From NCBI GenBank assembly GCA_032718475.1, contig JAUCBJ010006875.1, forward strand, positions 1-41,984: a stretch of 41,984 nt of DNA, read 5' to 3'. The translations under genes were made by a program, and so were the position numbers. This stretch comes from Nemertoderma westbladi (taxonomy: Eukaryota; Animalia; Xenacoelomorpha). The notes under the pieces were generated by a model. The model was not told where the DNA came from, did no database searches, and saw nothing but the letters and a program-made list of their open reading frames with translations. Below, in pieces: positions 1 to 38,304 of this stretch (positions within the stretch are counted from its first letter, which is position 1; every line of letters starts with the position of its first letter).

Positions 1-1147
1 TGTCCTTAGATCATTATAATGATGATGGGGTGATGATAACTCCACCTACTGGCTCCAGAAGTCGAGGAAATCCTGCCAAGTACCTAACTGATCTAGACTT
101 TGCTGATGACTTAGGGGTTTTTTTTTTTTTTTTTTTTACTCAAAAGCCTCCATATATTATAATACTAACAAACAATAATTCGAATATAAAAACGCACCAA
201 AACAAGTACAAATATAACCCACCACCAGCTGATTCAAACTGTTACCTAGCAACAATACAAACAATACAAATTGGTTCAGTACCCATCACCAGTCTGCCAC
301 TCTGCCACTGCCAGTACCAAACAACCTTAGGAGTACTCTCAGAATCATTAGAGGGAGCCCAACGGCTCCTCAGCTCATTAGAACATGCTGCTTCTAGTGT
401 TGGTCTTTTTATTAACTCCAGAAAGACCAAAATTCTGACAGTTAACTTTGAAAGTCCTCAGCAAGTCTCTGATCGGATGAGCATAAGCTCAAAGGATGGT
501 ATGCTTGAGCATGTGGACGACTTCTGTTACCTGGGATCATGGATCCGGACCGGAAGTCAGGTGAGGACCTTCGAATACGTAAGGGATAGGCATGGGCAGC
601 CTTGAATATGCTTTCCAGGATTTGGAAGTCACCGAGAATTAATCTGAAACTTAAGGTCCGATTATTTAGAGCAGCAGTAGTTCCAGTACTCCTCTACGGG
701 TGTCCATGCTGGGCTCTAACTGCTGAGGACACCAAATCTCTGGATGGCACATTCACAAGAATGCTACGCCGGGTTCATTGTGTCAAGTACAATGCACACA
801 TCTCCAACCAGACACTATATAACATTGTAGGTGTCTCATTGGTTCCCCCAAGCTTGACACTAGAACAAAATCGCCTCCGCTTTGCAGGACATTGCTTTCG
901 CCGTGAGGACCAGCCAGTGCATAATCTTGTACTTTGGCAGCCTCATGGAGTGAATAAGCATGGTGGACAGCCCATGACTTTCTTGAGACGCATCTTAAAG
1001 GACACTGGCCTTAAAGATGCGGATGATCTAGCAAATGTCATGGGTGATAGGGAGTTGTGGCGGTGCAATTTTGTTGACAAGCCGGCACAGCATTCTTAAA
1101 AATGCAGCTGCAATGCAGCATGCCGATCCTAGTAGTAGTAGTAGTAG
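1..1147 (+). mobile_element. RTE-like non-LTR retrotransposon 3' part (degenerate RT C-terminus), copy 1, running off the window start
   Basis: LDFADDL RT motif, 'GLFINSRKTKIL', 'VDDFCYLGS', 'KVRLFRAAVVPVLLYG', 'RLRFAGHCFR' in broken frames; ends in (AGT)n tail at 1130-1147. Confidence 0.85.
116..325 (-). mobile_element. Short antisense poly(A)-tailed retro-insertion inside the RTE-like copy
   Basis: T run 118-137; CTTAGG duplicated at 110-115 and 326-331; segment absent from the paralogous copy at about 17530-17545. Confidence 0.75.
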
Positions 1148-2095
1148 GGGCCCCTGGACCCATATCGCAGGGTATTCTGTGTCTGTGGGGTCCATGGTCC
1201 CATATCGCAGGGTATTCTGTGTCTGTGGGGGCCCATGGACCCATATCGCAGGGTATTCTGTGTCTGTGGGGCCCCTGGACCCATATCGCAGGGTATTCTG
1301 TGTCTGTGGGGGCCCATGGACCCCTATCGCAGGGTATTCTGTGTCTGTGGGGGCCCATGGACCCATATCGCAGGGTATTATGTGTCTGTGGGGGCCCATG
1401 GACCCATATCGCAGGGTATTCTGTGTCTGTGGGGGCTCATGGACCCATATCGCAGGGTATTATGTGTCAGTGGGGGCCCATGGACCCATATCGCAGGGTA
1501 TTCTGTGTCTGTGGGGGCCCATGGACCCATATCGCAGGGTATTCTGTGTCTGTGGGGGCCCATGGATCCATATCGCAGGGTATTCTGTGTCTGTGGGGGC
1601 CCATGGACCCATATCGCAGGGTATTCAGTGTCTGTGGGGACCCATGGACCTATATCCCAGGGTATTCTGTGTCTGTGGGGGCCCATGGACCCATATCGCA
1701 GGCTGTTCTATGTGTATGTGGACCCATATCGCAGGGTATTCTGTGTCTGTGGGGCCCATGGTCCCATATCGCAGGGTATTCTGTGTCTTTGGCGCCCATG
1801 GACCCATATCGCAGGGTATTCTGTGTCTGTGGGGCCCATGGACCCATATCCCAGGGTATTCTGTGTCTGTGGGGTCCATGGACCCATATCACAGGGTATT
1901 CTGTGTCTGTGGGGGCCCATGGACCCCTATCGCAGGGTATTCTGTGTCTGTGGGGCCCATGGACCCATATCGCAGGGTATTCTGTGTCTGTGGGGCCCAT
2001 GGACCCATATCGCAGGGTATTCTGTGTCTGTGGGGCCCATGGACCCATATCGCAGGGTATTCTGTGTCTGTGGGGGCCCATGTGGACCCATATCG
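1148..2095. repeat. 40-41 bp minisatellite (GGGGCCCATGGACCCATATCGCAGGGTATTCTGTGTCTGT)
   Basis: Direct tandem periodicity; starts immediately after the LINE (AGT)n tail. Confidence 0.97.
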
Positions 2096-6090: not shown

Positions 6091-7077
6091 CTAAAGACTT
6101 AGAAGTCGTTTTGCTGCAGATTCAGACACGTTTAGCTTTGTGCAGATTGAGTGGCGGGATTTTATGTGGCGATCTAAGTCTCTACGCCTTACCAATACTT
6201 TCCCACACTGTTTGCACTTGTAGGGGGCGTCGTCCCCTTCAGCATGCAACCGTATGTGCTTATTGAGATTGGACGGGTCTCCAAATGGTCTATCACATAC
6301 TTTGCATTTCAGTGGCTTGAAGCCGGTGTGAGTGCGCAGATGGATCTTTAAGCCGTATCTTCGTGAATATAACTTCCCGCAGTAGGGGCACAAGTGTTTA
6401 TTTTTCTCGGAGTAACGGAGGGCAGCGCGTTCGACCATATCCGGGTCTACAGTTGGTAAAAGGAGCGGAGGTGGAGGTTGTACTGGACGGCTTAGTTGGC
6501 TGTACAAAAGCTGCTGGGAAAATCTTGGTTGGGCCTGCTGGACACGCATCATCGCGGATTGGAGATTAACTATGTCGTCTATAACAGGTATGCGGGTGAA
6601 CATTCGGTCACCATGTGGTGTCTGGGTTGAAGGACTCGATTTCGTGATCCTGGAAGACTCCGGAGATTGTTCTAATAATTCCGTTGATCGTTGCGATGAC
6701 AACGAGGAGTTAATGGATGAACTGATGGATAGTGGGGACGGCACAGTTCCGAGAATACTGTCAATGCTGAAACTACTAAGTTTTTTAGGGGTATTATCAG
6801 CGGCTTCGACACAAGAAGAAGGTGAAGTATTAGAAGTAGCTTTAGATTGTTTTTGGACTTCGTCATTTGGATGTCGGATGGGAAGTGAGGGGTGGATAAA
6901 TGGTCGTTGTAGCCATGGCAAGGAGCTAAGGCCAGTAGGTATAATAGGAAGTTGAGTAAGACACGCAACCTTGGTTTGATGTGCCCCGAGGGGGGACGGA
7001 TTTTCCATGAGTTGCAGGGAACGCTGCATCATCAAGAAGCGAAGTTGATCGTTCGTTGGGAAGGCCCCGAATGCCAT
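6091..7077 (-). CDS. prdm13: PRDM13-like C2H2 zinc-finger transcription factor, 328 aa, no PR/SET domain, with eh1 motif
   Basis: C-terminal 'HLCPYCGKLYSRRYGLKIHLRTHTGFKPLKCKVCDRPFGDPSNLNKHIRLHAEG..YKCKQCGKVLVRRRDLDRHIKSRH' closely matches the three terminal fingers of PRDM13 as I recall them. First ATG at 7077, TAG at 6093-6091. FSIDSIL at 6771-6751. Confidence 0.85.
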   Translation of the reverse strand: MAFGAFPTNDQLRFLMMQRSLQLMENPSPLGAHQTKVACLTQLPIIPTGLSSLPWLQRPFIHPSLPIRHPNDEVQKQSKATSNTSPSSCVEAADNTPKKLSSFSIDSILGTVPSPLSISSSINSSLSSQRSTELLEQSPESSRITKSSPSTQTPHGDRMFTRIPVIDDIVNLQSAMMRVQQAQPRFSQQLLYSQLSRPVQPPPPLLLPTVDPDMVERAALRYSEKNKHLCPYCGKLYSRRYGLKIHLRTHTGFKPLKCKVCDRPFGDPSNLNKHIRLHAEGDDAPYKCKQCGKVLVRRRDLDRHIKSRHSICTKLNVSESAAKRLLSL

Positions 7078-7119
7078 AAAGCTGATCTTTATCACACCAG
7101 AACTTTGCTTGTTGAAAGC

Positions 7120-8673: not shown

Positions 8674-9867
8674 TGATTTTGATATAGTTGAATTTTATGC
8701 AACGAATCATATTGCAGCATCCTGGTATTATTATTCCAGGTACACCGAAATGTGCCGGTATTTATATATTAATTAAAACGATTAATTTAAATAAATAAAA
8801 TAAAAAACACACAATAGAGTGCGCACCTGTAAATATTAATATATGCCTTCAAGGAATCTTAATCTAGTATAATAAATGCAGTAAGACACTAAAAGGGTCT
8901 ACCATATACCAATTCTACTGTTGCCCGCATTAAACCTACATCACAGATGGTGTGATTCAAAGTAAAATATTCGCACTCAAGTAAACATGCTATCTATCAA
9001 TAAGAATACATGGTAGACTATGGGACGTGCATCTTGCGTCTGGCATCTTGCATCTTGCAGCTCTAGTGTGCGGCGGGCCTTAAAAGGTTCGAAAAAAAAA
9101 GTTTCGATTTCGATTTATGCCAATCAGAGCATCCCATTCCTAGAAGACCCTGAATATCGTATATATATGTATCCCACTGTATATCGGCCCTTCAAGAGTG
9201 TAGAGACAAGGGTACGTCGGATGTTTCTTGAAAGGATGGAGAAGTCTCGTAGAGTTGTAACCATGGTTACTATTAGCCATTAGCCAATCGGATCATCCTA
9301 TTCCTAGACACCCGGGGAAACTGAATCACGACTCTAACACAGTACAGAGACTATGGAGTGGGATGTCCCTAGCGATAATGAAAAAGTTTTGATTTTAAAT
9401 TAGTCCAGTTTTATCGAGGTTTAGTTTCAGCCAATTAGAGCCTTGACCACCTAAATCTGAAAATTTTCAATTAAGAGTGACGTTAGATTTAGGGTCTAAA
9501 CGCGTGTTAAAAAATATGGAAAATCGTTAGAGCCATTTTAAATTTGATAATCTTCAGTACTTACTTAATAAGCACAGATTAATTTCCGGGTTGACTTGTT
9601 TCTGATTTTATTTTTATTTCACTTATTATTTAGGCTATACATTAAAGCTTAGATCCTGCTCAATTTCATTATATTAACATTTGAATTTCATATTTATTTC
9701 TTATTAAAACAATAAAAGTTACGTTTGTAACTTAGTACGTACAAGTTAGTACATACAAGTTAAGTTTAGGTTAGGTTGCAAAACTCATGAAGTCCAACAA
9801 AATATTTAATTAGTTACTAATTAATTAATTATTTATTAATTCTGCACTTTTATAGATGCTAAAGCTA

Positions 9868-12800
9868 AACAACAAATAAACTCTGTCTGCACGGAATCCA
9901 AATGGAACAACAACAAATAAACTCTGTCTGCATGGAATCCCAATGGAACAACAACAAATAAACTCTGTCTGCACGGAATCCCAATGGAACAACAACAAAT
10001 AAACTCTGTCTGCATGGAATCCCAAGGGAACAACAACAAATAAACTCTGTCTGCACGGAATCCAAATGGAACAACAACAAATAAACTCTGTCTGCATGGA
10101 ATCCCAATGGAACAACAACAAATAAACTCTGTCTTCACGGAATCCAAGTGGAACAACAACAAATAAACTCTGTCTGCACGGAATCCAAATGGAACAACAA
10201 CAAATAAACTCTGTCTGCACGGAATCCAAATGGAACAACAACAAATAAACTCTGTCTGCATGGAATCCCAATGGAACAACAACAAATAAACTCTGTCTGC
10301 ATGGAATCCCAATGGAACAACAACAAATAAACTCTGTCTGCACGGAATCCAAATGGAACAACAACAAATAAACTCTGTCTGCACGGAATCCAAATGGAAC
10401 AACAACAAATAAACTCTGTCTGCACGGAATCCAAATGGAACAACAACAAATAAACTCTGTCTGCATGGAATCCAATTGGAACAACAACAAATAAACTCTG
10501 CCTGCACGGAATCCAAATGGAACAACAACAAATAAACTCTGTCTGCACGGAATCCCAATGGAACAACAACAAATAAACTCTGTCTGCACGGAATCCAATT
10601 GGAACAACAACAAATAAACTCTGTCTGCACGGAATCCCAATGGAACAACAACAAATAAACTCTGTCTGCACGGAATCCAATTGGAACAACAACAAATAAA
10701 CTCTGTCTGCACGGAATCCAAATGGAACAACAACAAATAAACTCTGTCTGCACGGAATCCAAATGGAACAACAACAAATAAACTCTGTCTGCATGGAATC
10801 CAATTGGAACAACAACAAATAAACTCTGCCTGCACGGAATCCAAATGGAACAACAACAAATAAACTCTGTCTGCACGGAATCCCAATGGAACAACAACAA
10901 ATAAACTCTGTCTGCACGGAATCCAATTGGAACAACAACAAATAAACTCTGTCTGCACGGAATCCCAATGGAACAACAACAAATAAACTCTGTCTGCACG
11001 GAATCCAATTGGAACAACAACAAATAAACTCTGTCTGCACGGAATCCAAATGGAACAACAACAAATAAACTCTGTCTGCATGGAATCCCAATGGAACAAC
11101 AACAAATAAACTCTGTCTGCATGGAATCCCAATGGAACAACAACAAATAAACTCTGTCTGCACGGAATCCCAATGGAACAACAACAAATAAACTCTGTCT
11201 GCACGGAATCCCAATGGAACAACAACAAATAAACTCTGTCTGCACGGAATCCCAATGGAACAACAACAAATAAACTCTGTCTGCACGGAATCCCAATGGA
11301 ACAACAACAAATAAACTCTGTCTGCACGGAATCCCAATGGAAAAACAACAAATAAACTCTGTCTGCACGGAATCCCAATGGAACAACAACAAATAAACTC
11401 TGTCTGCACGGAATACCAATGGAACAACAACAAATAAACTCTGTCTGCACGGAATCCCAATGGAACAACAACAAATAAACTCTGTCTGCACGGAATCCCA
11501 ATGGAACAACAACAAATAAACTCTGTCTGCACGGAATCCAAATGAAACTCTGTCTGCACGGAATCCAATTGGAACAACAACAAATAAACTCTGTCTGCAC
11601 GGAATCCCAATGGAACAACAACAAATAAACTCTGCCTGCACGGAATCCAAATGGAACAACAACAAATAAACTCTGTCTGCATGGAATCCCAATGGAACAA
11701 CAACAAATAAACTCTGTCTGCACGGAATCCCAATGGAACAACAACAAATAAACTCTGTCTGCACGGAATCCAAATGGAACAACAACAAATAAACTCTGTC
11801 CGCACGGAATCCAATTGGAACAACAACAAATAAACTCTGTCTGCATGGAATCCCAATGGAACAACAACAAATAAACTCTGTCTGCACGGAATCCAAATGG
11901 AACAACAACAAATAAACTCTGTCTGCACGGAATCCCAATGGAACAACAACAAATAAACTCTGTTTACACGGAATCCAAATGGAATAACAACAAATAAACT
12001 CTGTCTGCATGGAATGCCAATGGAACAACAACAAATAAACTCTGTCTGCATGGAATCCCAATGGAACAACAACAAATAAACTCTGTCTGCACGGAATCCC
12101 AATGGAACAACAACAAATAAACTCTGTCTGCGCGGAATCCCAATCGAACAACAACAAATAAACTCTGTCTGCGCGGAATCCCAATGGAACAACAACAAAT
12201 AAACTCTGTCTGTACGGAATCCAATTGGAACAAAAACAAATAAACTCTGTCCGCACGGAAACCCAATGGAACAACAACAAATAAACTCTGTCTGCACGGA
12301 ATCCAATTGGAACAACAACAAATAAACTCTGTCCGCACGGAATCCCAATGGAACAACAACAAATAAACTCTCTCTGCACGGAATCCCAATGGAACAACAA
12401 CAAATAACATCTGTCTGCACGGAATCCAATTGGAACAACAACAAATAAACTCTGTCTGCACGGAATCCCAATGGAACAACAACAAATAAACTCTGTCTGC
12501 ACGGAATCCAAATGGAACAACAACAAATAAACTCTGTCTGCGCGGAATCCAAATGGAACAACAACAAATAAACTCTGTCTGCATGGAATCCCAATGGAAC
12601 AACAACAAATAAACTCTCTCTGCACGGAATCCAAATGGAACAACAACAAATAAACTCTCTCTGCACGGAATCCAAATGGAACAACAACAAATAAACTCTG
12701 TCCGCACGGAATCCCAATGGAACAACAACAAATAAACTCTGTCTGCACGGAATCCAAATGGAACAACAACAAATAAACTCTGTCTGCACGGAATCCCAAT

Positions 12801-13511
12801 GGAACAACAACAAATAAACTCTCTCTGCACGGAATCCCAATGGAACAACAACAAATAACATCTGTCTGCACGGAATCCAATTGGAACAACAACAAATAAA
12901 CTCTGTCTGCACGGAATCCCAATGGAACAACAACAAATAAATTCTGTCTGCACGGAATCCAAATGTAACAACAACAAATAAACTCTGTCTGCACGGAACC
13001 CAAATGGAACAACAACAATTAAACTCTGTCTGCACGGAATCCAAATAGAACAACAACAAATAAACTCTGTCTGCACGGAATCCAATTGGAACAACAACAA
13101 ATAAACTCTGTCTGCACGGAATCCAAATGGAACAACAACAATTAAACTCTGTCTGCACGGAATCCAAATAGAACAACAACAAATAAACTCTGTCTGCACG
13201 GAATCCAATTTGAACAACAACAAATAAACTCTGTCTGCACGGAATCCAATTGGAAAAACAACAAATAAATTCTGTCTGTACGGAATCCCAATGGAACAAC
13301 AACAATTAAACTCTGTCTGCACGGAATCCAAATAGAACAACAACAAATAAACTCTGTCTGCACGGAATCCAATTTGAACAACAACAAATAAACTCTGTCT
13401 GCACGGAATCCAATTGGAAAAACAACAAATAAATTCTGTCTGTACGGAATCCCAATGGAACAACAACCAATAAACTCTGTTTGCACGGAATCCAATTGGA
13501 ACAACAACAAT
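9868..13511. repeat. 41-bp minisatellite (AACAACAAATAAACTCTGTCTGCACGGAATCCCAATGGAAC)
   Basis: About 89 units; variants CCCAA/CCAAA/CCAAT; more divergent toward the right end. Confidence 0.98.
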
Positions 13512-17315: not shown

Positions 17316-18033
17316 AGGGTTATGGGGCATCCTCCAGGGAGACACACTTCTTGTTCACCAATTCTGCACAATTCTTGTTCTGCACCATTCTTGTTCATAA
17401 TTATGGTTGCCTATATTCAACGCATGTCCTTAGATCATCATAATGATGATGGGGTGATGATAACTCCACCTACTGGATCCAGAAGTCGAGGAAATCCTGC
17501 CAAGTACCTAACTGATCTAGACTTTGCTGATGACTTACGAGTACTCTCAGAATCACTAGAGTGAGCCCAACGGCTCCTCAGCTCATTAGAACATGCTGCT
17601 TCTAGTGTTGGTCTTTTTATTAACTCCAGAAAGACCAAAATTTTGACAGTTAAACAGTGGAAGTCACCGAGAATTAATCGGAAACTTAAGGTCCGATTAT
17701 TTAGAGCAGCAGTAGTTCCAGTACTCCTCTATGGAAGTCCATGCTGGGCTCTAACTGCCGAGGACACCAAATCTCTGGATGCTACATTCACAAGAATGCT
17801 ACGCCGGGTACATTGTGTCAAGTACAATGCACACATCTCCAACCAGACACTATATAACATTGGAGTTGTCTTATTGGTTCCCCCAAGCTTGACACTAGAA
17901 CAAAATCTCCTCCGCTTTGCAGGACATTGATTTCGCCGTGAGGACCAGCCAGTAAATAATCTTGTACTTTGGCAGCCTCATGGAGTGAATAAGCATGGTG
18001 GACAGCCCATGACTTTCGTGAGACGCATCTTAA
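17316..18033 (+). mobile_element. RTE-like LINE fragment, copy 2 (internal deletion, truncated at TTAA)
   Basis: GILQGDTL..APFLFII and LDFADDL motifs; 17425 onward matches window position 1 onward; region equivalent to about 447-621 is missing; homology stops at CATCTTAA 18026-18033. Confidence 0.85.
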
Positions 18034-20039: not shown

Positions 20040-20335
20040 ATAACTCCATAATGCAGCGTGCATTAAGAATGGAATGCCGGATTGTCGACAAAATTGCGCC
20101 ACCACAACTCCACCCCATCACTATCGCGAGATTAACCGCATCCTCAAAAGGTCAGGGTCCTTTAAGATGCGTCTCAATAAAGTCATAGGCGAACCACCAT
20201 GCTTATTCACACTTAATGAGACCGCCAAAGCACATGATTATGCACTGGCTGGTTTTCACGGCAAAGCAATGTCCTGAGAAGCGGGGGTGGCTCTATTCAA
20301 GTGTCAAGCTAAGTGGGACCAATGAGACACATCCA
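20040..20335 (-). mobile_element. RTE-like LINE 3' fragment, older diverged copy
   Basis: CCTTTAAGATGCGTCTCAA, CCACCATGCTTATTCAC, GATTATGCACTGGCTGG and AAAGCAATGTCCTG match the reverse complement of about 830-1110. Confidence 0.75.
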
Positions 20336-20751
20336 TTGCTATAATTGAATTATGTTGGTGTTTTAAGGGTCTAAGCAACGATTCTAAATAAAAAAAATTT
20401 ATTTTATTATAGCCATACAGTGTCTTCAGTGATATAAATTAAAAATACATTTAAATTGTATACATAATTTACATATTAAAAGTAGAAGGCCTAGGTACGC
20501 GTTGTGATTCAGTATAAATGAATGCCATCTATATCTTACTGTATCTTATCATAACTGCAGCCATAAATGACATATCGGTATTCAAGAGATGTGAATTGTG
20601 AAATGCAATCATTGCAAAACCAGTACAAATTTATTTACATCCAATCCATCGACTTCAAATTCATAAAAGTACAAAAGGTGTAATATTATGTTGTAACATC
20701 AGGTTTGTTCAGAAGTGGAAAAAATGGGAGCGCGTCACCGGGGGTTGAACC

Positions 20752-20797
20752 AGCGCTATACGTACGTTTCGGCCTAACAGGCCTCATCAGTAGCGCT
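20752..20797 (-). ncRNA. Minimal type I hammerhead ribozyme, copy 1
   Basis: Minus strand AGCGCTA-CTGATGA-GGCC-TGTTA-GGCC-GAA-ACGTACGT-A-TAGCGCT: 7-bp stem I, intact core, stem II, palindromic stem III, GUA cleavage triplet (cut 3' of the base at 20759). Confidence 0.9.
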
Positions 20798-21100
20798 AAC
20801 CAGCTCAGCCACTAGCCCCTGACACTCGCAGTCCCACCTAATCCACTTCTATTGAACGGGCAGTCTTAAGTTGCAAATATTCTATCTCTAACAGCGGTTG
20901 ACCTAACGGCCTCAAGTATGCTAGAGTGAAACAGGAGGGAAGTACAAATAAATAAATATTCAGCTCGGTATTGCTGCCAGGTGATATTAATTAAATAAAT
21001 TGGAGATGAGCTGTTGCAACTGTAATTAAAGGTGTAATATTATGGGTTTGTTAAGACTGCCCGTTCAATAGAAGTGGATTAGGTGGGACTGCGAGTGTCA

Positions 21101-21201
21101 GGGGCTAGTGGCTGAGCTGGTTAGCGCTACTGATGAGGCCTGTTAGGCCGAAACGTGCGTATAGCGCTGGTTCAACCCCCGGTGACGCGCTCCCATTTTT
21201 T
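21101..21201 (+). promoter_or_regulatory. tRNA-like Pol III internal promoter (A box, B box, T6) bracketing the hammerhead; mirrored on minus at about 20719-20819
   Basis: A box TGGCTGAGCTGG 21109-21120; B box GGTTCAACCC 21169-21178; TTTTTT 21196-21201; 5' context GGGGCTAGTGGCTGAGCTGGTTAGCGC resembles a tRNA 5' half. Confidence 0.65.
21123..21168 (+). ncRNA. Minimal type I hammerhead ribozyme, copy 2
   Basis: AGCGCTA(21123-29) CTGATGA(21130-36) GGCC-TGTTA-GGCC(21137-49) GAA ACGTGCGT A(21161) TAGCGCT(21162-68); GUA cleavage after 21161. Confidence 0.9.
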
Positions 21202-21371
21202 CCACTTCTGAACAAACCCATAATATTACACCTTTAATTACAGTTGCAACAGCTCATCTCCAATTTATTTAATTAAAAGTACAAAAGCATTTCACTTTCC
21301 TTGACTTTGGCTAGTAATGTGAAGTAGGATAAATTACATTATAATGGTTATAAAGTAGGAAACCACATCTA

Positions 21372-22700
21372 TTAATTATAATTATAATAGATAGCACAAT
21401 AAGAGGCAAGGAGCACAAATAAGATAAGGACCTGTGGAAGTCCGACTATAATGAAGTGGTTGCAGTGCGAGGACAGAGAGAGAAGGACACCTCGGGCAGA
21501 CCAAGATATGGTACCTATCAGTCGCAGGATCCAGACAGAAACTTCAGACGCACTGAGGCGAGAGTTCGTGGAACGGCTGTTTATTCTTACAGAGTTTATG
21601 GTGGAAACCATAAACTGTTGCTCGAGTTATAGAATGACGGTTTCGCTGGTTCGGGCAGAAACTGATGTTGATACAGTTTTCTTCGCGTTTGAGTCTGTGT
21701 TCCCAATATTGGTCAACAACGATGATGTTTTTTCTAAAGTTTTTTCTTGCACTAGGTGAAGAACCAAGGTTGGGGAGGCCGATTTGTGAACACCAAGAAG
21801 ACGTTTTATGAAAGTATCTTTAATTTCATCGAGTTCTTTTAAATTTGAAACTGTAAGGAATTTTGCAAATACTGGAAGCGCATAGATAACAATAGGGTAT
21901 ATTTTCATTCTGAATATTTTTAGAGCAGTTTCTGTAGATACAAGTTGAATGTTTGAGAGTGATCCAATAATTCCAAATGCTTTATTTTTCTTTGAATTTA
22001 TATGTTCTGTAAAGCTGAGTGATTGTTGAAGTATAACACCGATATATTCGTATTTTGAACACATTGTGACCTACTACTAGGATCGGCATGCTGCATTGCA
22101 GCTGCATTTTGAAGAATGCTGTGCCGGCTTGTCGACAAAATTGCGCCGCCACGGCGCCACAACTCCCTATCACCCATGACATTTGCTAGATCATCCGCAT
22201 CTTTAAGGCCAGTGTCCTTTAAGATGCGTCTCAAGAAAGTCATGGGCTGTCCACCATGCTTATTCATTTCATGAGGCTGCCGAAGTACAAGATTATGCAC
22301 TGGCTGGTCCTCATGTCGAAAGCAATGTCCTGCAAAGCGGAGGCGATTTTGTTCTAGTGTCAAGTTTGGGGGAACCAATGAGACACCTCCAATATTATAT
22401 AGTGTCTGGTTGGAGATGTGTTGTTGTGACCAGTTGCCCCCGTAAGTAAAGATGTCAGAAGCGATAGTTTCCCACCTTTTCTAAATTTTACAATTTTGAT
22501 TTTCGTTAAGTTTACTTCCATTCCGTTGAGTTGCACCATATTTCCACAGTGTTAAGAGCATCTTGAATATGTTGAATTTCACTTGAGTAAAACACAAGAT
22601 CGTCTGCGAAGAAAATAAATTTAAGTAAGTCTACAAACGCAGCGTACACATGGCGTCTGTACTAATTATACGCTCTACAAAATAATAAACTGCACTCAAT
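21372..22700 (-). mobile_element. Degenerate LINE RT/C-terminal fragment (second family), split by an RTE-like insertion
   Basis: 'FFADDLVFYSSEIQHIQDALNTVEIWC' near 22613-22533, 'KIVKFRKGGKL', then 'KYEYIGVILQQSLSFTEHI..KDTFIKRLLGVHKSA'. Boundaries approximate. Confidence 0.7.
22072..22423 (-). mobile_element. RTE-like LINE 5'-truncated copy with TSD
   Basis: Reverse complement of about 795-1137 with short (AGT)n tail; TTGTGACC duplicated at 22064-22071 and 22424-22431. Confidence 0.9.
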
Positions 22701-22810: not shown

Positions 22811-25363
22811 CAGGGGCGGGAATAAGTTATCTTGTACAACAGTTATCACCAAGGGGCGGGAATAAGTTATCTTGTACAACAGGGAGCACCAAGTGGTGGA
22901 AATAAGTTATCTTGTACAACAGTGAGCACCAAGGGGCGGGAATAAGTTATCTTGTACAACAGTGAGCACCAAGGGGCGGGAATAAGTTATCTTGTACAAC
23001 AGTGAGCACCAAGGGGCGGGAATAAGTTATCTTGTACAACAGTGAGCACCAAGGGGCGGGAATAAGTTATCTTGTACAACAGTGAGCACCAAGTGGCGGG
23101 AATAAGTTATCTTGTACAACAGGGAGCACCAAGTGGCGGAAATAAGTTATCTTGTACAACAGTGAGCACCAAGGGGCGGGAATAAGTTATCTTGTACAAC
23201 AGGGAGCACCAAGGGGCGGGAATAAGTTATCTTGTACAACAGGGAGCACCAAGGGGCGGGAATAAGTTATCTTGTACAACAGGGAGCACCAAGAGGCGGG
23301 AATAAGTTATCTTGTACAACAGTGAGCACCAAGGGGCGGGAATAAGTTATCTTGTACAACAGGGAGCACCAAGTGGCGGAAATAAGTTATCTTGTACAAC
23401 AGGGAGCACCAAGTGGCGGAAATAAGTTATCTTGTACAACAGTGAGCACCAAGGGGCGGGAATAAGTTATCTTGTACAACAGGGAGCACCAAGGGGCGGG
23501 AATAAGTTATCTTGTACAACAGGGAGCACCAAGGGGCGGGAATAAGTTATCTTGTACAACAGTGAGCACCAAGGGGCGGGAATAAGTTATCTTGTACAAT
23601 AGTGAGCACCAAGGGGCGGGAATAAGTTATCTTGTACAACAGTGAGCACCAAGGGGCGGGAATAAGTTATCTTGTACAACAGTGAGCACCAAGTGGCGGG
23701 AATAAGTTATCTTGTACAACAGGGAGCACCAAGTGGCGGAAATAAGTTATCTTGTACAACAGTGAGCACCAAGGGGCGGGAATAAGTTATCTTGTACAAC
23801 AGGGAGCACCAAGGGGCGGGAATAAGTTATCTTGTACAACAGGGAGCACCAAGTGGCGGAAATAAGTTATCTTGTACAACAGGGAGCACCAAGTGGTGGA
23901 AATAAGTTATCTTGTACAACAGTGAGCACCAAGGGGCGGGAATAAGTTATCTTGTACAACAGTGAGCACCAAGGGGCGGGAATAAGTTATCTTGTACAAC
24001 AGTGAGCACCAAGGGGCGGGAATAAGTTATCTTGTACAACAGTGAGCACCAAGGGGCGGGAATAAGTTATCTTGTACAACAGTGAGCACCAAGGGGCGGG
24101 AATAAGTTATCTTGCACAACAGTTATCACCAAGGGGCGGGAATAAGTTATCTTGCACAACAGTTATCACCAAGGGGCGGGAATAAGTTATCTTGTACAAC
24201 AGGGAGCACCAAGTGGCGGGAATAAGTTATCTTGTACAACAGTGAGCACCAAGGGGCGGGAATAAGTTATCTTGTACAACAGGGAGCACCAAGGGGCGGG
24301 AATAAGTTATCTTGTACAACAGTGAGCACCAAGGGGCGGGAATAAGTTATCTTGTACAATAGTGAGCACCAAGGGGCGGGAATAAGTTATCTTGTACAAC
24401 AGTGAGCACCAAGGGGCGGGAATAAGTTATCTTGTACAACAGTGAGCACCAAGTGGCGGGAATAAGTTATCTTGTACAACAGGGAGCACCAAGTGGCGGA
24501 AATAAGTTATCTTGTACAACAGTGAGCACCAAGGGGCGGGAATAAGTTATCTTGTACAACAGGGAGCACCAAGGGGCGGGAATAAGTTATCTTGTACAAC
24601 AGGGAGCACCAAGTGGCGGAAATAAGTTATCTTGTACAACAGGGAGCACCAAGTGGTGGAAATAAGTTATCTTGTACAACAGTGAGCACCAAGGGGCGGG
24701 AATAAGTTATCTTGTACAACAGTGAGCACCAAGGGGCGGGAATAAGTTATCTTGTACAACAGTGAGCGCCAAGGGGCGGGAATAAGTTATCTTGTACAAC
24801 AGTGAGCACCAAGGGGCGGGAATAAGTTATCTTGTACAACAGTGAGCACCAAGGGGCGGGAATAAGTTATCTTGCACAACAGTTATCACCAAGGGGCGGG
24901 AATAAGTTATCTTGCACAACAGTTATCACCAAGGGGCGGGAATAAGTTATCTTGTACAACAGGGAGCACCAAGTGGCGGGAATAAGTTATCTTGTACAAC
25001 AGTGAGCACCAAGGGGCGGGAATAAGTTATCTTGTACAACAGTGAGCACCAAGGGGCGGGAATAAGTTATCTTGCACAACAGTGAGCACCAAGGGGCGGG
25101 AATAAGTTATCTTGTACAACAGTGAGCACCAAGGGGCGGGAATAAGTTATCTTGCACAACAGTGAGCACCAAGGGGCGGGAATAAGTTATCTTGTACAAC
25201 AGTGAGCACCCAGGGGCGGGAATAAGTTATCTTGTACAACAGTGAGCACCAAGGGGCGGGAATAAGTTATCTTGTACAGCAGTGAGCACCAAGGGGCGGG
25301 AATAAGTTATCTTGTACAGCAGTGAGCACCAAGGGGCGGGAATAAGTTATCTTGTACAACAGT
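22811..25363. repeat. 40-bp minisatellite (CAAGGGGCGGGAATAAGTTATCTTGTACAACAGTGAGCAC)
   Basis: About 64 units in exact 40-bp register with no indels. Confidence 0.98.
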
Positions 25364-27594: not shown

Positions 27595-27646
27595 CTGTAT
27601 AGGAGATGATTCTACGTGTATTAATGACGTTAAAGCCGCACCAACG

Positions 27647-28612
27647 TGGACCCTGGGGTTCTCATTTGCGATTGTATATGGGCTTCCGCACTCCCACTTG
27701 GCTACACGGACCCTGGGGTTCGGTTGTATATGGGCTTCCGAACTCCCACTTGGGTACATGGACCCTGGGGTTCGGTTGTATATGGGCTTCCGCACTCCCA
27801 CTTGGGTACATGGACCCTGGGGTTCGGTTGTATATGGGCTTCCGCACTCCCACTTGGGTACATGGACCCTGGGGTTCGGTTGTATATGGGCTTCCGCACT
27901 CCCACTTGGGTACATGGACCCTGGGGTTCGGTTGTATATGGGCTTCCGCACTCCCACTTGGGTACATGGACCCTGGGGTTCGGTTGTATATGGGCTTCCG
28001 CACTCCCACTTGGGTACATGGACCCTGGGGTTCGGTTGTATATGGGCTTCCGCACTCCCACTTGGGTACATGGACCCTGGGGTTCGGTTGTATATGGGCT
28101 TCCGCACTCCCACTTGGGTACATGGACCCTGGGGTTCGGTTGTATATGGGCTTCCGCACTCCCACTTGGGTACATGGACCCTGGGGTTCGGTTGTATATG
28201 GGCTTCCGCACTCCCACTTGGGTACATGGACCCTGGGGTTCGGTTGTATATGGGCTTCCGCACTCCCACTTGGGTACATGGACCCTGGGGTTCGGTTGTA
28301 TATGGGCTTCCGCACTCCCACTTGGGTACATGGACCCTGGGGTTCGGTTGTATATGGGCTTCCGCACTCCCACTTGGGTACATGGACCCTGGGGTTCGGT
28401 TGTATATGGGTTTCCGCACTCCCACTTGGGTACATGGACCCTGGGGTTCGGTTGTATATGGGCTTCCGCACTCCCACTTGGGTACATGGACCCCGGGGTT
28501 CGGTTGTATATGGGCTTCCGCACTCCCACTTGGATGGACCCTGGGGTTCGGTTGTATATGGGCTTCCGCACTCCCACTTGGGTACATGGACCCTGGGGTT
28601 CGGTTGTATATG
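27647..28612. repeat. 52-bp minisatellite (TGGACCCTGGGGTTCGGTTGTATATGGGCTTCCGCACTCCCACTTGGGTACA)
   Basis: About 18 highly homogeneous units; open in all six frames. Confidence 0.97.
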
Positions 28613-28725
28613 CTTTGGCACATCTGTCACATAATCATTAATAATCATTAATATATTAAATCAGTACAGCAGTAGCCTGACTGCAGGATAGCAGGTACCG
28701 TAAGCATATATTGGAATAAGTGTAT

Positions 28726-29673
28726 ATGGCACATTCGAACATTTCTATCAACGAATACAAAGGATTGTCAAAGGCCGAACAGCGTAAAATTCAGAAGTCG
28801 GTACGGAAGGAGGAATTAGTAAGGTTGCTGGACGAAAGTATAGCAATATCATTCAGTTCGGGTTCCGATTCTGAGGTTTCTCAGTCTGATCGTCCACCGG
28901 CGACCGGAGCAAGATCTCAGTCCAAGGCCCCTAAAGCCGGCGCGACATTGGAACAAATTTCGAGTTTGTTAGACGTTAAACTGAACAAGCTTAAGTCCGA
29001 TATTAAGTCCGAAGTTAAAGCCGATCTGAAGCGGGAAATCGACCAGCAGGTCGAGGTGTCTGTTAGTAAGCATTGCGACAGTCGGTTGAAGTGTTATTCA
29101 AAGGATATAGAATATCTCAGGAAGGCAGTAAAGCGCAACGAGTCCAGTATTTCTAACATTGAGCGGGATAATCGGGACAGGCGAATTATAATCGCAGGTC
29201 TACCAGAAGGGGATTTCAGTTTGCCTACGGGCTCTGTGGTGGCATTAATTAATCTGAGAGACAAGGTAAGCGCAGTATTTGAGCAGTTAAAAGTTCCAAG
29301 CGACGCAACAGGAAGGGAATCTGTGTTTAATCCTACAGTTTGTAAACGGTTGGGTAAGCAGGTTCAGGTAGAGGGCTCCACTTCTCCCCGGATTGTTCTG
29401 GTAGAATTTAGTCATTCTTCTGCTAAATACGAAGTTCTAAATCGAGCTGTGGCTCTTCGCTCTTTGCGCCCAGATTTTTCGATATTTATTTCGGCGGACT
29501 TGTCTGACACGGAGAGGCGTGAGAAACGACGTTTACTAGCTAAGCGGGATTCTCTACGTGAAGACCAACCGGATCGGAAGGATATTTACATTAAGTGGCC
29601 GTCGTTATACGTCGGATCAGACATTGTTGATCAGGTGAACACCGGTACCGGTAGTAGCAACGCTGTTATATGA
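28726..29673 (+). CDS. LINE ORF1 protein (coiled coil + RRM-like)
   Basis: Lys/Glu-rich heptad region followed by 'IERDNRDRRIIIAGLPE', 'PRIVLVEF', 'IFISADLS', typical of LINE ORF1; first ATG at 28726. Confidence 0.85.
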   Translation: MAHSNISINEYKGLSKAEQRKIQKSVRKEELVRLLDESIAISFSSGSDSEVSQSDRPPATGARSQSKAPKAGATLEQISSLLDVKLNKLKSDIKSEVKADLKREIDQQVEVSVSKHCDSRLKCYSKDIEYLRKAVKRNESSISNIERDNRDRRIIIAGLPEGDFSLPTGSVVALINLRDKVSAVFEQLKVPSDATGRESVFNPTVCKRLGKQVQVEGSTSPRIVLVEFSHSSAKYEVLNRAVALRSLRPDFSIFISADLSDTERREKRRLLAKRDSLREDQPDRKDIYIKWPSLYVGSDIVDQVNTGTGSSNAVI

Positions 29674-29880
29674 TGGGTTTGCATTTGTTGGTTTTGTTGG
29701 TTTCTTTTATGGTTACTGTTTCTCGAGTTACAGTTATCCCGGATATCAGTGTTATTAATGGATCGGGGTTCGCTAGTTTACATTCTTTAAGTCCTGCAGC
29801 AGGTGCTGCAGGCTGTGGTTGGCTAGGGCCTTTGGCTGGTAGCGATCGGCGTACTGGTACATTCAGCTTAGGCTATAGTC

Positions 29881-32800
29881 ATGGTCGCATTTACAGTTGC
29901 TTATCAGGGTACTGATGACATCAGTCATGGCCATGGCTATGAGCTAAGTAATGGAAACAGGTCTACAAGGTCGCAACTGCTTTCATCCCTGCAAGGAATA
30001 CATTGTACACAAGAAAACCAAAGCAGGTCCAGCAATAATTTTCGTTGCCAAAAGAAGGTCTGTGTATTGAATGCACGTAGTATTAAAGCATATAATCGGA
30101 GGTTTAACAAGTTATTGGAGTTTCATCAGTTTGTTGCTGATCAACATATCGACATGATTGCAGTTACGGAATCTTGGTTGAATTCTAATATTAAAGATGA
30201 AGAAATTATACCAAATAAGGAGTGGTGCATATATCGTAAGGATAGAGATGATAAAGTTGGTGGGGGGGTGTTCCTTATGTTGAGGAACAATTTTACCAGC
30301 CTACACAGAAAGGATCTGGAGTTTGGATGCTCTGAAATTATGGTGGTGGAGTTACGCCCTGTGGGTGGAGAAAGGGCTGCTATGGTGGTGGGTTACAATC
30401 CGCCAATCGATTCTCGTTTCCCGGCTGAGTCTCGTGCTGCTAGGTCAACCTTTATATGCGATCTACGATTGGTTTTGCAGCGTTGCTCAAATGCAAAGCT
30501 CAATCAGGTTTACTTGTTTGGTGACTTTAATCTGCATGAGGGTATTGAGTGGGGCTCACAAACGGCGAAAACTCTTGGTTCTGATGAAAGCAACTTTTGT
30601 GAGCTGTTGAACGACTTCTGTTTGCAACAGCTGGTAGATACACCGACGCACATTAGTGGGAACATTTTGGATTTGGTGTGCACTAATTATTGTGAGCGTT
30701 TGAGTGATCTTTATGTTATAGAGCATGGTTTTAGCTCTGACCACTTTCCAGTAGTTTTTCGGTTGGGGTTCTTGGCTCCAACCGGGAAGAGGTTGAAGAA
30801 GTTTGTTTATAATTTTAAAAAAACAAATTTTGATGAACTTAAACAGTTTTACTCACGAAATCTAGACCCCGAGTACTTTGAGGCGAATCTATCACAGGGC
30901 TCAAAGTCTGATGTTAATTATGTTCTAGAATGCTGGATGTCCATTCTTCAGAATGGGATCCAACAGTTTGTGCCTAAATCGCTTATTAAAAATTCTGGTC
31001 GGCCAAAATGGTTAGACAAGGATAGTACACACTTGTCTAACCGTGTTAACACGGCCCGTAAGAGGGCAGTTGTATCTGGCTCCATTCAACACTGGGCCAA
31101 ATACAAGCATCTACGCAATAATTTACGTTCTCTTGCTCGTGCAAAGTATAATGCGTACATAGAGGATTTGGGTAACTCTATTGACTCTAACCCAAGGTTG
31201 TTTTGGAACTTTTATCATTCTAAGACAAAATCTAGTGCTTCACCAGCTGTTATAAAGCACAGGGATGGAGTACTTACATCTGATTACGATATTGCTTGTA
31301 AATTCAATGACACGTTTTTCTCAAATTTTAGTGAACCATTGTCCGCATCTGTGCTACCATACATTTTTAGTTGGCGGAATTGTAATCTGGAAAGCACATG
31401 CTTTTCTCCACAACATGTGCTCAAGATTTTACGATCTTTAAATAGCAACAAGGCTGCAGGCTTTGATGCAATTCCACCCATTGTTCTAATTCAGTGTGCA
31501 GGTGAATTAAGTGAGTCATTGTGCAATATATTCAATTTGTCACTGGCGACAGGTATTTTTCCTGAGGCTTGGAAGAGTGCAGTGGTTATTCCCGTATATA
31601 AGAAGCTAGAGCGTAATATTGCTGACAACTATAGGCCAGTGTCTTTGTTGTCAGTTATATCTAAAGTATATGAACGATGTTTATGCGATCACATCATATA
31701 TCAGATTAAACCACTGTTCTCTCTTAGTCAACATGGTTTCTGTGCTGGTCGCTCAACAGTGACCCAGCTCATTGGTGCATATCATACTATTGGTAAGATT
31801 TTAGATAATGGTGGGCAGGTACATGTGCTGTACTTGGATTTTTCCAAGGCATTTGATAGTGTACCTCATACTTATTGATTCATAAGCTAAAAAGCTTTGG
31901 TTTTAGTGGTGCAATACTGAAATTGATGGAATCATATTTATCAAACCGTAGGCAATGTGTGTCACACAATGGCTCAGTTTCCTATTGGCTAGATGTGCGG
32001 TCAGGGGTCCCACAGGGGTCCTTGTTGGGGCCCATTTTGTTCAGTATGTATATCAATGACATGCCGCGTGTGGCAGAAAGAGACCACACGGTTTCTCTTT
32101 ATGCTGATGACTCTAAGCTTTTCTCTGAAATAAAATCTGTTACAGACTGCTGGGACCTACAAGGCAGCTTAGATAAATTACTTGTTTGGAGCGAGACATG
32201 GGGTATGAGTTTTAACACTAAGAAATGCAAGGTGCTAACTATAACTAGGAAGAAATTCCCAAATTTATATTTTTATAATTTGAGGGGCCACCCACTGGGT
32301 CGTGTAACTAGTTTCACCGATCTAGGTTTGAAAATCACTGGGAACCTAGATTGGTCAGCGCACATTGATGACGTTGTTGGTAGGACAAATAAAACTTGGT
32401 TTATGATAAGGAGAGTGTGTGATAGTTCACATGGTGAACTAATGAAAAAGTTATTTGTTTCGTTGTGCCGTAGTAAATTGGAGTACGCCAGTCCAGTGTG
32501 GGACACACACATCAAACATAACCGCCTTCGACTGGAAGGGGTTCAGCGACGTGTAACTCGCAGCCTTTGTGGGTATCAGCATGATCTCTCATACAGCGAG
32601 AGGTTAGGCAATTTAAATCTAACTCCAATTTGCTATCGGAAAGAGATCTTAGATCTCCTATTTTATCATGGTGTTGTCTATAATCGCTTTGACGTTGCAC
32701 TACCTGCTATTAGAGAACGTAGCTGGGACGTGGATCCTAGAATATTCGGTAATCTTTGCCATACTGAAACGTTTTATGCTTCTTTCTGTAACCGGATTGG

Positions 32801-32981
32801 GAAGGAGTGGAATAATCTACCTCTTGCAATCCGGAAAATCAAGAAGCTTTCAGTATTTAAACGTCAACTGTTTTTGCATTACAGTCGAGTAAGGATGCCC
32901 ATATTTGACTGCGATAACCCATGTACATACATGACATGTTGTCACTGTTCACGTTGTCGGGAGTTTAACAGTTGTTTATAA
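29881..32981 (+). pseudogene. LINE ORF2 (AP endonuclease + reverse transcriptase) with a single frameshift at about 31875
   Basis: APE motifs LNARSI, VTESWL, GDFN, LDLV, SDH; RT motifs NYRPVSLL, QHGF, LDFSKAFDSVPH | LIHKL, GVPQGSLLGP, YADDSKL; Cys-rich C-terminus CDNPCTYMTCCHCSRC. Confidence 0.92.
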
Positions 32982-33303
32982 ATATCGTAGCGGAATCCAA
33001 GCAATATTAGTTTTGGTACTGTTAACCATACTGATTAAGTATATAGGTATATTGTAGTGTCACTATTATCAGTTTAATTTAGTTAGTTTATTTTCTGCCA
33101 TAACATTATATTATTATCAATTTATGTATTATATAATATCATATGTAGCCTATAATACGTTGTTTTGCTTACAGTAGGCCTACATTAAGTAACGGTCAGT
33201 TATATCACAGGCGTGCACTACAATATGGTTATCAACACCTCCGTGCATTGTCTTTGTTATCTATATATAACATAAAGTTTAATAATAAATAAATAAATAT
33301 ACT

Positions 33304-34633
33304 TTGTTTGGGTTGTATTGGACAACAAACCTTGTTTGGGTTGTATTGGACAACAATTGGGTTACATTGGACACCATACCTTGTTTGGGTTGTATTGGAC
33401 AACATTTGGGTTACATTGGACACCATATACTTTGTTTGGGTTGTATTGGACAACATTTGGGTTACATTGGACACCATACCTTGTTTGGGTTGTATTGGAC
33501 AACATTTCGGTTACATTGGACACCATACCTTGTTTGGGTTGTATTGGACAACATTTCGGTTACATTGGACACCATACCTTGTTTGGGTTGTATTGGACAA
33601 CATTTGGGTTACATTGGACAACATACCTTGTTTGGGTTGTATTGGACAACATTTGGGTTACATTGGACACCATACCTTGTTTGGGTTGTATTGGACAACA
33701 TTTGGGTTACATTGGACACCATATACTTTGTTTGGGTTGTATTGGACAACATTTGGGTTACATTGGACACCATACCTTGTTTGGGTTGTATTGGACAACA
33801 TTTCGGTTACATTGGACACCATACCTTGTTTGGGTTGTATTGGACAACATTTCGGTTACATTGGACACCATACCTTGTTTGGGTTGTATTGGACAACATT
33901 TGGGTTACATTGGACAACATACCTTGTTTGGGTTGTATTGGACAACATTTGGGTTACATTGGACAACATACCTTGTTTGGGTTGTATTGGACAACATTTG
34001 GGTTACATTGGACACCATACCTTGTTTGGGTTGTATTGGACAACATTTGGGTTACATTGGACACCATACCTTGTTTGGGTTGTATTGGACAACATTTGGG
34101 TTACATTGGACACCATACCTTGTTTGGGTTGTATTGGACAACATTTGGGTTACATTGGACACCATACCTTGTTTGGGTTGTATTGGACAACATTTGGGTT
34201 ACATTGGACAACATACCTTGTTTGGGTTGTATTGGACAACATTTGGGTTACATTGGACAACATACCTTGTTTGGGTTGTATTGGACAACATTTGGGTTAC
34301 ATTGGACAACATACCTTGTTTGGGTTGTATTGGACAACATTTGGGTTACATTGGACACCATACCTTGTTTGGGTTGTATTGGACAACATTTGGGTTACAT
34401 TGGACACCATACCTTGTTTGGGTTGTATTGGACAACATTTGGGTTACATTGGACACCATACCTTGTTTGGGTTGTATTGGACAACATTTGCGTTACATTG
34501 GACAACATACCTTGTTTAGGTTGTATTGGACAACATTTGGGTTACATTGGACACCATACCTTGTTTGGGTTGTATTGGACAACATTTGGGATACATTGGA
34601 CACTATACCTTGTTTGGGTTGTATTGAACAACT
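33304..34633. repeat. 49-bp minisatellite (TTGTTTGGGTTGTATTGGACAACATTTGGGTTACATTGGACACCATACC)
   Basis: About 27 units, each made of two related TTTGGGTT..ATTGGACA subrepeats; begins right after the LINE tail. Confidence 0.97.
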
Positions 34634-35026
34634 TTTCGGGTGGGGGGTTTTCGTTTTAGCGATCGGTAAGTTTCATCTGGTCTACGATTCGAGATCCCTG
34701 GAAAGTAAAAAATAAACTAACATTTTGAAAATTTATAATATTAAAACTCAGTTGGATGCGAAAATATATAAAGACATTTATTCCACTACATTACCTTCTT
34801 AACACAGATATTTACAAAGGCAACTTATTTTCCTAATATTTCTACCTTCCAAACAAGAATTAAGTGCGACGGGGGGGGGGGGGGGGGGGGGGGGGTTTAT
34901 TGCAAGATACCATATATAACACTTCTCCCTAGGAGAACGTCAACCGGTACTAAATGGAAGCGGCGTGTGAATGAATCCAATTAGTCGCGGACCTAACCGC
35001 AACGACTAAAATTAAACTCGACAAAC

Positions 35027-37451: not shown

Positions 37452-38225
37452 GATTGATTGATTGATTGATTTATTTATTTTCCCAAATAATACATAAATA
37501 TAACAAATACATTACATAATTCACAATAAAATGGGCAGGAAGACTGCTTAGTAGCATAGTGCTAGTTAGCGCAGTATCCTGTTAGGTACCGGAATATATA
37601 ATACATAAATTGGGTAGATACATCTTACGTTAATGTGCAAGCAACTACAGGGGTTACATACATGTAGGATCCCAATACCCAACCCACCAGTGCACCCAGT
37701 TCCCCTATCGTTGGTCAATCGACCCCCTCCCACACACCGTTGTTGCTACGTAGACCTCCTTACGATCCCTCTGTTATAAATGTTAAAAAAAAAAAAAAAA
37801 AAAAAAATTTATTTTTACTTTTTATTTATTTTTATTTTTATAGATCGCTGCTCTCCGATGACATTAGTTTTAATTTCATATTTTTTATAAACATTTTCCT
37901 ACTTTTGATTTCTCTCAGTTTAGGTGATATGTTGTTCCAAAGAGATGGTCCGACAAAAGAGATAGATCGCTGCCCAACGACTAAATTAGCACGAGGAATA
38001 AAGAATAAATTTTGTGATTTTGATCTTGTACCATAACGATGAACATCACCTACCAATAAAAATTGATTTGATAATTCAGTTTTCTCATAGTTGTAGAATA
38101 CACTGTGCATAAAGGCTGCTACTTGAAGTGAGTGCAAATGTTGAACGGGTAATATTTTTAAACTTTGATATAACGGAAAGGAGTGCGCAAGACGGTCAGA
38201 AAAGGTAATGCATCTTAAGATTTTA
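37452..38225 (-). mobile_element. 5'-truncated L2-group (Crack/Daphne-like) LINE 3' end
   Basis: 'HRYGTRSK..FIPRANLVVGQRSISFVGPSLWNNISPKLREIKSRKMFIKNMK' is a typical ORF2 C-terminus; 3'UTR ends in AATAAA/(ATCA)n at about 37480-37452. Clade tentative. Confidence 0.7.
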
Positions 38226-38304
38226 TTAATTTTTTGTCTTACTTTTTTTATCAGAGAGGAGGTCGCCGAGGGTCATTGAGATCCGTCAATATACTATGGG
38301 AAAT

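Follow-up and report, generated by a model that had tools for sequence, protein, structure and literature searches.

A hammerhead ribozyme sequence nested between the two halves of a putative tRNA-type promoter was found in the xenacoelomorph Nemertoderma westbladi (GenBank assembly GCA_032718475.1, contig JAUCBJ010006875.1, positions 1 to 41,984 of the forward strand; this whole 41,984-nucleotide stretch is called the window). The locus is best read, with a probability of about 0.6, as a retrozyme-type repeat that was likely moved by Penelope-type machinery and whose hammerhead lies between likely tRNA-derived boxes, which would act as an outer stem in the RNA and as a Pol III promoter in the DNA. 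Among hammerhead repeats, Sm-alpha of Schistosoma is the known Pol III case, and retrozymes as a kind are known as well. What sets the locus apart from the promoter-then-hammerhead order of Sm-alpha, and was not found described in the literature covered, is the nesting with a cut that would split the promoter. The motifs on the plus strand are as follows.

21109-21120, plus strand: A box (TGGCTGAGCTGG), tRNA D-loop-like, by consensus match; in the RNA fold, the 5' strand of the distal helix I extension and its internal loop.
21123-21168, plus strand: canonical type I hammerhead, by core, helix geometry and fold; predicted cut after the GUA ending at 21161.
21169-21179, plus strand: B box (GGTTCAACCCC), tRNA T-loop-like, by consensus match; in the RNA fold, the 3' strand of distal helix I.
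21196-21201, plus strand: T6, candidate Pol III terminator, from the T-run scan; the fold pairs its U's within the long stem.
21071-21209, plus strand: long imperfect hairpin with the hammerhead at its tip, from the RNA fold.

A first-pass annotation of this DNA had listed an A box, a hammerhead, a B box and a T6 run. All of these were found where it placed them; only the close joining of the B box and T6 did not stand, as 16 bases lie between the two (T6 begins about 17 nt behind the B box). Its view that the hammerhead takes the place of a tRNA anticodon arm and variable loop is borne out by the order A box, hammerhead, B box, as is the prediction that a cut after 21161 would part the A box from the B box in the RNA, since the B box lies behind the cut site. 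The T-arm-like CCGGT comes after the B box. T6 is the sole run of four or more T's in the sense monomer, a weak signal given that 309 of 5,000 shuffles of the rest were equally free of T4, and it is retained in a second sequence type seen among the loose ends in DNA runs. According to the available text of PMC5356446, the spacing of A and B boxes is variable and terminators stand close behind tRNA genes; by analogy, the distance of T6 behind the B box resembles that of tRNA-gene terminators.

The suggestion of a repeat family in the same annotation was confirmed. The repeat unit is a high-copy, non-coding, circularly permuted monomer of 341-343 nt, and 954-1,871 contigs per DNA run matched 21051-21276 (1,208 in X2, 1,871 in X3 and 954 in X4; the three runs come from two studies, one possibly the source of this DNA), with a further 104 in X5. 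The loose ends of the X2-X4 contigs run on into the sequence found at window 20870-20986 on the minus strand. A single X1 contig of 371 nt has ends overlapping by 30 nt, which gives a closed loop of 341 nt; this loop matches all 226 nt of the plus copy without a difference and departs from the 343-nt period of the window by one substitution and four gap letters. That X1 is RNA is a guess only, and a closed contig may come equally from an RNA circle, multimeric RNA or tandem DNA. Every junction of the monomer loop is present in DNA, the window itself holds about 1.07 units on one strand, and short contigs cannot resolve arrays. In X3 the flank has a summed depth of 26.5, while most element positions reach about 37,000 or more; this suggests a thousand or more copies, though depth is not a copy number. 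X1 contigs are missing from the unique flank 20380-20701 and X4 contigs from the junction 20679-20701; these gaps were taken as evidence neither of expression nor of an insertion polymorphism.

Non-LTR retrozymes are defined, in the available text of PMC7229834, by a unit of 150-450 bp, a type I hammerhead, GC under 50% and a long target-site duplication. The monomer studied here falls within that length range, has a GC content of 0.446 and no ORF of 100 aa, carries a type I hammerhead as judged from sequence and fold, and is present in many copies; it is thus very probably an animal non-LTR retrozyme. The likeness to metazoan non-LTR retrozymes, as far as the available text of PMC7229834 and of preprint 10.64898/2026.07.22.740005 goes, includes the monomer size, a canonical type I hammerhead with short palindromic helix III, GC under 50%, the absence of an ORF, high copy number, a long candidate target-site duplication, and a self-paired ring in which the hammerhead fold is accessible (here predicted). 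Two differences stand beside it. Retrozymes are described as promoterless in the accessible part of PMC7761336, whereas tRNA-type boxes enclose the hammerhead here and T6 follows; and tandem arrays and RNA circles are established for them, whereas the present family is represented by short contigs and one closed contig.

The insertion is made up of two copies on opposite strands; the inverted one and the 341-343-nt unit had both escaped the first-pass annotation.

20664-20677, no strand: left copy of a 14-bp direct repeat, candidate target-site duplication, overlapping the element end by 4 nt.
20674-21052, minus strand: permuted full monomer (period 343) with about 25 nt of terminal redundancy and an 11-nt insertion, 3' end facing left; from self-comparison and from the X1 ring contig on 20702-21044.
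20702-20869, minus strand: second copy of the boxes, hammerhead and T6, with 167 of 168 positions identical; loop III is GUAC, the majority form.
20870-20986, minus strand: 117-nt spacer completing the monomer (115 nt in the X1 ring), from run contigs and fold and period analysis.
20902-20918, minus strand: decayed partial duplicate of the hammerhead core and helix II, without GAAA, inside the spacer; 17 of 20 columns match, and 17 of 5,000 shuffles were as good.
21051-21276, plus strand: partial monomer of 226 nt, 3' end facing right; family cover starts and ends here in X1-X4.
21274-21287, no strand: right copy of the 14-bp direct repeat, candidate target-site duplication, overlapping the element end by 3 nt.

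The plus and minus copies meet head to head near 21051, so that both outer ends are 3' ends; at this one locus they lie about 41 nt apart in monomer coordinates, about 35 and about 75 nt behind T6. One X3 contig crosses the flank and the left junction (20380-20731) with 0 other letters, and the junction is therefore not an assembly error. Both copies continue across the hammerhead cleavage site, and the template was therefore uncut or re-closed RNA; with one hammerhead per strand, this locus could not itself free a monomer by two cuts. Penelope-like elements are reported to carry an inverted truncated copy and a 30-40 bp tail (PMC8557442), and the PAc enzyme to nick and extend both strands and to start reverse transcription at two nearby internal sites (PMC11167929), as far as the available texts go. 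The head-to-head copies with ends about 41 nt apart match this signature, and retrozymes have been linked to Penelope-like elements in the accessible part of preprint 10.64898/2026.07.22.740005. By this analogy, drawn from one locus, insertion by Penelope-type machinery is probable. No reverse transcriptase or GIY-YIG ORF was found in the insertion or among the 8 window ORFs scanned. The relic core in the spacer lies off the half-period, and an origin of the monomer from two 170-nt halves was rejected on that ground.

The surroundings are repeat-rich animal-type DNA with tandem arrays, LINE-type reverse transcriptase fragments and a C2H2 zinc-finger exon. An open frame at 6091-7119 (minus strand) encodes three C2H2 zinc fingers and presumably resembles PRDM13. 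A near-complete LINE, with a putative ORF1 and an endonuclease-reverse transcriptase region over two frames, lies at 28720-32981 (plus strand), and one LINE-type family has left four dispersed 3'-end fragments (796-1138, 17831-18033, 20052-20343 and 22071-22421). Long young tandem arrays occur at about 9700-13500, 22812-25363, 27600-28650, 33290-34700 and 38160-41984, three of them with units of 41, 40 and 36 bp; a search with the hammerhead core pattern found no match within the long arrays of the window.

The predicted hammerhead consists of a 6-bp helix I (21124-21129/21162-21167), the core CUGAUGA (21130-21136), a 4-bp helix II (21137-21140/21146-21149) with the loop UGUUA, GAAA (21150-21153), and a helix III of 2 bp with a 4-nt loop, followed by GUA (21159-21161). 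The helix III region (ACGUGCGU/ACGUACGU) can form an 8-bp self-pairing in both natural copies (-8.8 and -9.8 kcal/mol). U21168 and A21145 of loop 2 are presumably positioned for the usual hammerhead tertiary contact. As read from sequence, this geometry is that of the canonical animal type I form, for which the available text of PMC4209133 gives a helix I of 6 bp, a helix II of 4 bp and a short helix III with a palindromic loop; the "minimal" type I hammerhead of the first-pass annotation is thus replaced by the canonical one. Newt type I hammerheads require looped helix I extensions, as stated in the available text of PMC6155905. Matches to the core pattern alone are not unusual (3 in the window against 1.4 expected), and the Rfam scan of the locus gave no hammerhead match at the gathering score, the type III model Hammerhead_3 being matched only below threshold (20.7 and 20.9 bits against 48.5). 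Because the core pattern is within chance and the Rfam matches are sub-threshold, the case for a ribozyme rests on the helix geometry.

Folding of the ring gave probabilities of 0.62-0.92 for helix I, 1.0 for helix II and 0.55-0.73 for a helix between the A and B boxes (6 bp plus 2 bp) that extends helix I past an internal loop; pairs of a T-arm and a D-stem had a probability of 0.0. The hammerhead-constrained fold lies above the minimum by 2.6 kcal/mol in the 21071-21209 hairpin and by 1.8 kcal/mol in the ring. The stability of the ring is weak (z -1.8 against mononucleotide shuffles), and the 101-nt piece alone shows no unusual stability (z -0.5). The RNA is therefore predicted to take the shape of an extended hammerhead with paired A and B boxes and not that of a tRNA, and the tRNA-ribozyme chimera shape proposed in the first pass was given up on the values of 0.0 for T-arm and D-stem in the ring together with a sub-threshold ARAGORN score. 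For the short RNA, with an assumed start site, misfolding is predicted in the plus copy, where helix I has a probability of 0.22; in the minus copy the value is 0.86.

The natural variants mostly fit this model. The sole A-box variant at a frequency of at least 2%, 21116 G>A (26-44% of depth in X2-X4 and 91% in X5), turns a G.U pair of the distal helix into A-U while the A-box consensus is kept, and the B box has no variant at that level in X2-X4. The 21157 G/A variant retains the 8-bp self-pairing of helix III, which permits dimers, and variant site 21143 sits in loop 2. These common variants are compatible with the predicted hammerhead fold; 21149 C>T (19-34% of depth), which weakens the conserved first pair of helix II, counts against it. 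The lower stem has changes in each of its strands, at 21089-21095 and at 21188-21193, that seem compensatory; being unphased, they were not counted. By conservation the boxes do not stand out from background: 1 of their 23 sites is variable and, outside them, 19 of 203 (Fisher p 0.70). A direct duplication of the hammerhead, window 21121-21166, was also seen in X4 and X5, with the joint going back by 46 and 19 letters between; these 19 letters include an A-box-like start, and the variant has a depth of 241 in X5. One deep X5 contig carries a 4-base insertion where the hammerhead core starts.

The likeness of the boxes to those of tRNA genes was set against chance with A and B consensus patterns picked after the sequence had been seen. 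With these, strict A and B boxes 35-110 nt apart occurred in 2 of 200,000 dinucleotide shuffles of the monomer, the loose consensus in 446 of 40,000 (51 of 40,000 with T4 behind), and, with the hammerhead fixed and the flanks shuffled, the box pair in 2 of 100,000. These counts support boxes that are tRNA-like beyond chance. The two boxes stand in tRNA spacing, as in tRNA-derived SINEs, and the box positions dispensable for the distal helix (T21109, C21112, G21119-G21120 and A21175) still fit the consensus. A pattern built from both flanks matched 68 loci, all of them tRNA genes (Asn 19, Thr 18, Met 15, Val 8, Phe 3, Pro 3 and Tyr 2); the pattern was designed with tRNA in mind, and the result therefore speaks for likeness and not for descent from a given gene. 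The flanks agree with an intron-bearing tRNA-Tyr (L094) in 22 of 33 and 18 of 25 columns, the target having been picked among the pattern matches with no null. A suspected ancestry from tRNA-Tyr was dropped as the 68 matches spread over seven isotypes, and an ancestral isotype is therefore not assigned. ARAGORN reported only a possible pseudogene at 21093-21193 with 87% of the threshold score (35 of 1,000 shuffles pass at 85%), and its tRNA-Asn call was taken as noise. No functional tRNA gene was recovered at the locus, where a cloverleaf with an anticodon arm is missing and ARAGORN and Rfam give no tRNA at normal thresholds. Taken together, the flanks of the hammerhead are likely, on sequence grounds, to be tRNA-derived.

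Intron-containing tRNA genes are alike in that an inserted RNA at the anticodon arm parts the A and B boxes (tRNA-Tyr L094; tRNA-Phe-like L022 and L069). They differ from the present locus, which has no cloverleaf, no anticodon stem and no variable loop; the D-stem 3' strand and T-stem 5' strand are consumed by helix I, and the acceptor strands are out of register. L094 and L155, at 138-222 (plus strand), are eukaryote-type intron-containing tRNA-Tyr genes on bacterial MAG contigs, likely contamination. L022 (1190-1276, minus strand), L069 (1190-1282, minus strand) and L075 are tRNA genes with an anticodon-loop insert, likely tRNA-Phe with an intron, and L022 and L069 match the Rfam tRNA model. 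The loop and insert of these three spell a hammerhead-like CTGAAGA...CGAAAC core, and tRNA genes can therefore come near the core by accident.

The boxes may alternatively be relics or look-alikes in the same kind of retrozyme, retained solely as outer helix and tertiary contact, with the RNA produced by read-through from other promoters. We consider this less likely than a promoter still in use, although it is the strongest of the alternatives. It would explain why the two boxes are predicted to pair (6 bp and 2 bp) and why the one common box variant (21116 G>A) strengthens this pairing; T6 is at odds with Pol III production of the monomer, and retrozymes are seemingly promoterless (PMC7761336, available text). 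Moreover, metagenome contigs L016, L019 and L026 have B-box-like sequence behind a type III hammerhead, so that such a motif may have other causes. Against it, the five box positions outside the helix still match the consensus, the terminator-like T6 stands at tRNA-gene distance, and the tRNA likeness is complete in the boxes and gone from the acceptor and anticodon regions, which we take as the usual pattern of promoter retention. On balance, use of the boxes by Pol III as a promoter is slightly favoured by the sequence.

Penelope-like elements and the hammerheads of their pLTRs share with the locus an inverted truncated 5'-side copy, two 3' ends about 40 nt apart, an AT-rich target and a type I hammerhead; they differ in that the present repeat has no reverse transcriptase or GIY-YIG ORF and a canonical, not minimal, hammerhead, and in that tRNA-type boxes are not mentioned for them in the available texts of PMC4209133, PMC11167929 and PMC8557442. 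That the repeat is itself the pLTR of an autonomous Penelope-like element or a truncated fragment of one, and not an independent non-coding family, is improbable: the X1 contig closes on itself at 341 nt, the best-supported loose ends listed from the DNA runs enter the spacer and not a coding region, and animal pLTR hammerheads are mostly minimal, whereas the one here is canonical. The model of a self-contained tRNA-headed SINE, whose transposing RNA would be a 100-nt Pol III transcript of tRNA-like shape, can draw on the A box, B box and T6, which are ordered and spaced as in a tRNA gene, and on the weak ARAGORN pseudogene, but is very improbable and largely refuted by the monomer length, as the family spans 341 nt in a loop and extends past both ends of the 100-nt piece, the insertion ends well behind T6 with no A-tail, and T-arm and D-stem are predicted not to form. 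The sense monomer has no A4 run, and the unit has neither a tRNA-head start nor an A-rich or simple-repeat tail; the 100-nt SINE unit of the first-pass annotation thus gives way to the 341-343-nt permuted monomer, inserted in Penelope fashion.

Also close to the locus are the SINE-like repeats Sm-alpha and Sj-alpha of Schistosoma, each unit of which combines a tRNA-related Pol III promoter with a type I hammerhead and whose multimers are cut to monomers, according to the available texts of PMC6765202, PMC2770079 and, for the combination in Sm-alpha, PMC2220036. In Sm-alpha the promoter precedes the hammerhead, and cleavage leaves it whole at the monomer's 3' end (PMC6765202). Here, in contrast, only the A box of the putative promoter stands upstream of the hammerhead; the predicted cleavage site separates it from the B box, and pairing of the two boxes is predicted to contribute a helix to the ribozyme. 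Helenus, a non-autonomous LTR element, is likewise a non-SINE retroelement with a captured tRNA-derived promoter, and its motifs TRGCY, YGG and GGTTC are also present at our locus; it differs in its LTR type, its primer binding site and the lack of a ribozyme (PMC10886601, available text).

The literature listings and passages covered gave no account of a hammerhead between A and B boxes, and the two of the three supplements of PMC4209133 that were searched gave zero matches. A pattern of core and B box matched 12 viral and 79 metagenome loci, none of which (0 of 91) has a type I helix I of at least 4 bp and a helix II of at least 3 bp and none of which is monomer-like by blastn, while a pattern of A box and core matched 10 viral loci, none with a B box; the viral and metagenome collections are mostly prokaryotic, and these negatives say little on animals. 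Among the metagenome loci, L016 (about 1175-1260, plus strand), L021 (match at 1201-1257, minus strand) and L026, L034, L045 and L082 (about 30-115, plus strand) carry a hammerhead core with a TTCGCA-type helix II loop, a D-loop-like sequence upstream of the core and a T-loop-like GGTTCRAT motif downstream of it. L026 and L016 match Rfam Hammerhead_3 below threshold, and the six are possibly a hammerhead family with a tRNA-elbow-like frame. L019 has two type III hammerheads on the same strand, 620 nt apart (1175-1229 and 1795-1849, plus strand), the first followed by a B-box-like hairpin; it was grouped with L030, L043 and L058.

A life cycle can be proposed for the retrozyme with promoter boxes. 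TFIIIC would bind the boxes, and Pol III would start near 21090-21100; most transcripts would end at T6, giving an RNA of about 105 nt that could cut itself into pieces of about 65 and about 40 nt. As T6 is a canonical terminator, Pol III would yield a monomer solely by read-through, and read-through by Pol III or another polymerase over head-to-tail copies would reach the next hammerhead. Two cuts would then free a monomer with the B box at its start and the A box at its end, which a host ligase would close, restoring the order A box, hammerhead, B box; RtcB is the ligase in known retrozymes. A Penelope-type reverse transcriptase and endonuclease would copy the uncut or re-closed RNA, and two reverse transcription start sites about 41 nt apart, on two nicked strands, would produce the head-to-head insertion. 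Leaky Pol III termination is reported for human genes (PMC3141230), and 8 of 9 predicted retrozyme dimers were uncleaved in vitro (preprint 10.64898/2026.07.22.740005), as given in the available texts. Because the cut falls between the boxes, a cut linear monomer would carry them in the wrong order, and only re-closed or uncut RNA would pass on the promoter. We tentatively suggest, as a possibility of rather low probability, that a hammerhead took the place of the anticodon arm of a tRNA gene or evolved from it; the result would be a self-promoting retrozyme with a split-promoter check, in which the same bases double as promoter and helix and the short T6-ended RNA may supply a partner for dimeric cleavage.

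In summary, the locus bears a Penelope tail signature on a non-coding retrozyme, adding nucleotide-level support to a link for which co-occurrence and trees had so far been the arguments. Should the boxes be mere relics, the locus would represent one more retrozyme family. Retrozymes seem to lack a promoter according to the available text of a 2020 review (PMC7761336), and with a candidate promoter built into the ribozyme, the mode of transcription of animal retrozymes becomes accessible to direct test, as point mutations can part the promoter role from the pairing role. If the flanks are tRNA-derived, the family would offer a traceable path from a tRNA to a ribozyme retroelement, and, if the split-promoter reading is true, only RNA that was correctly re-circularized or copied uncut would give rise to DNA with a working Pol III promoter.
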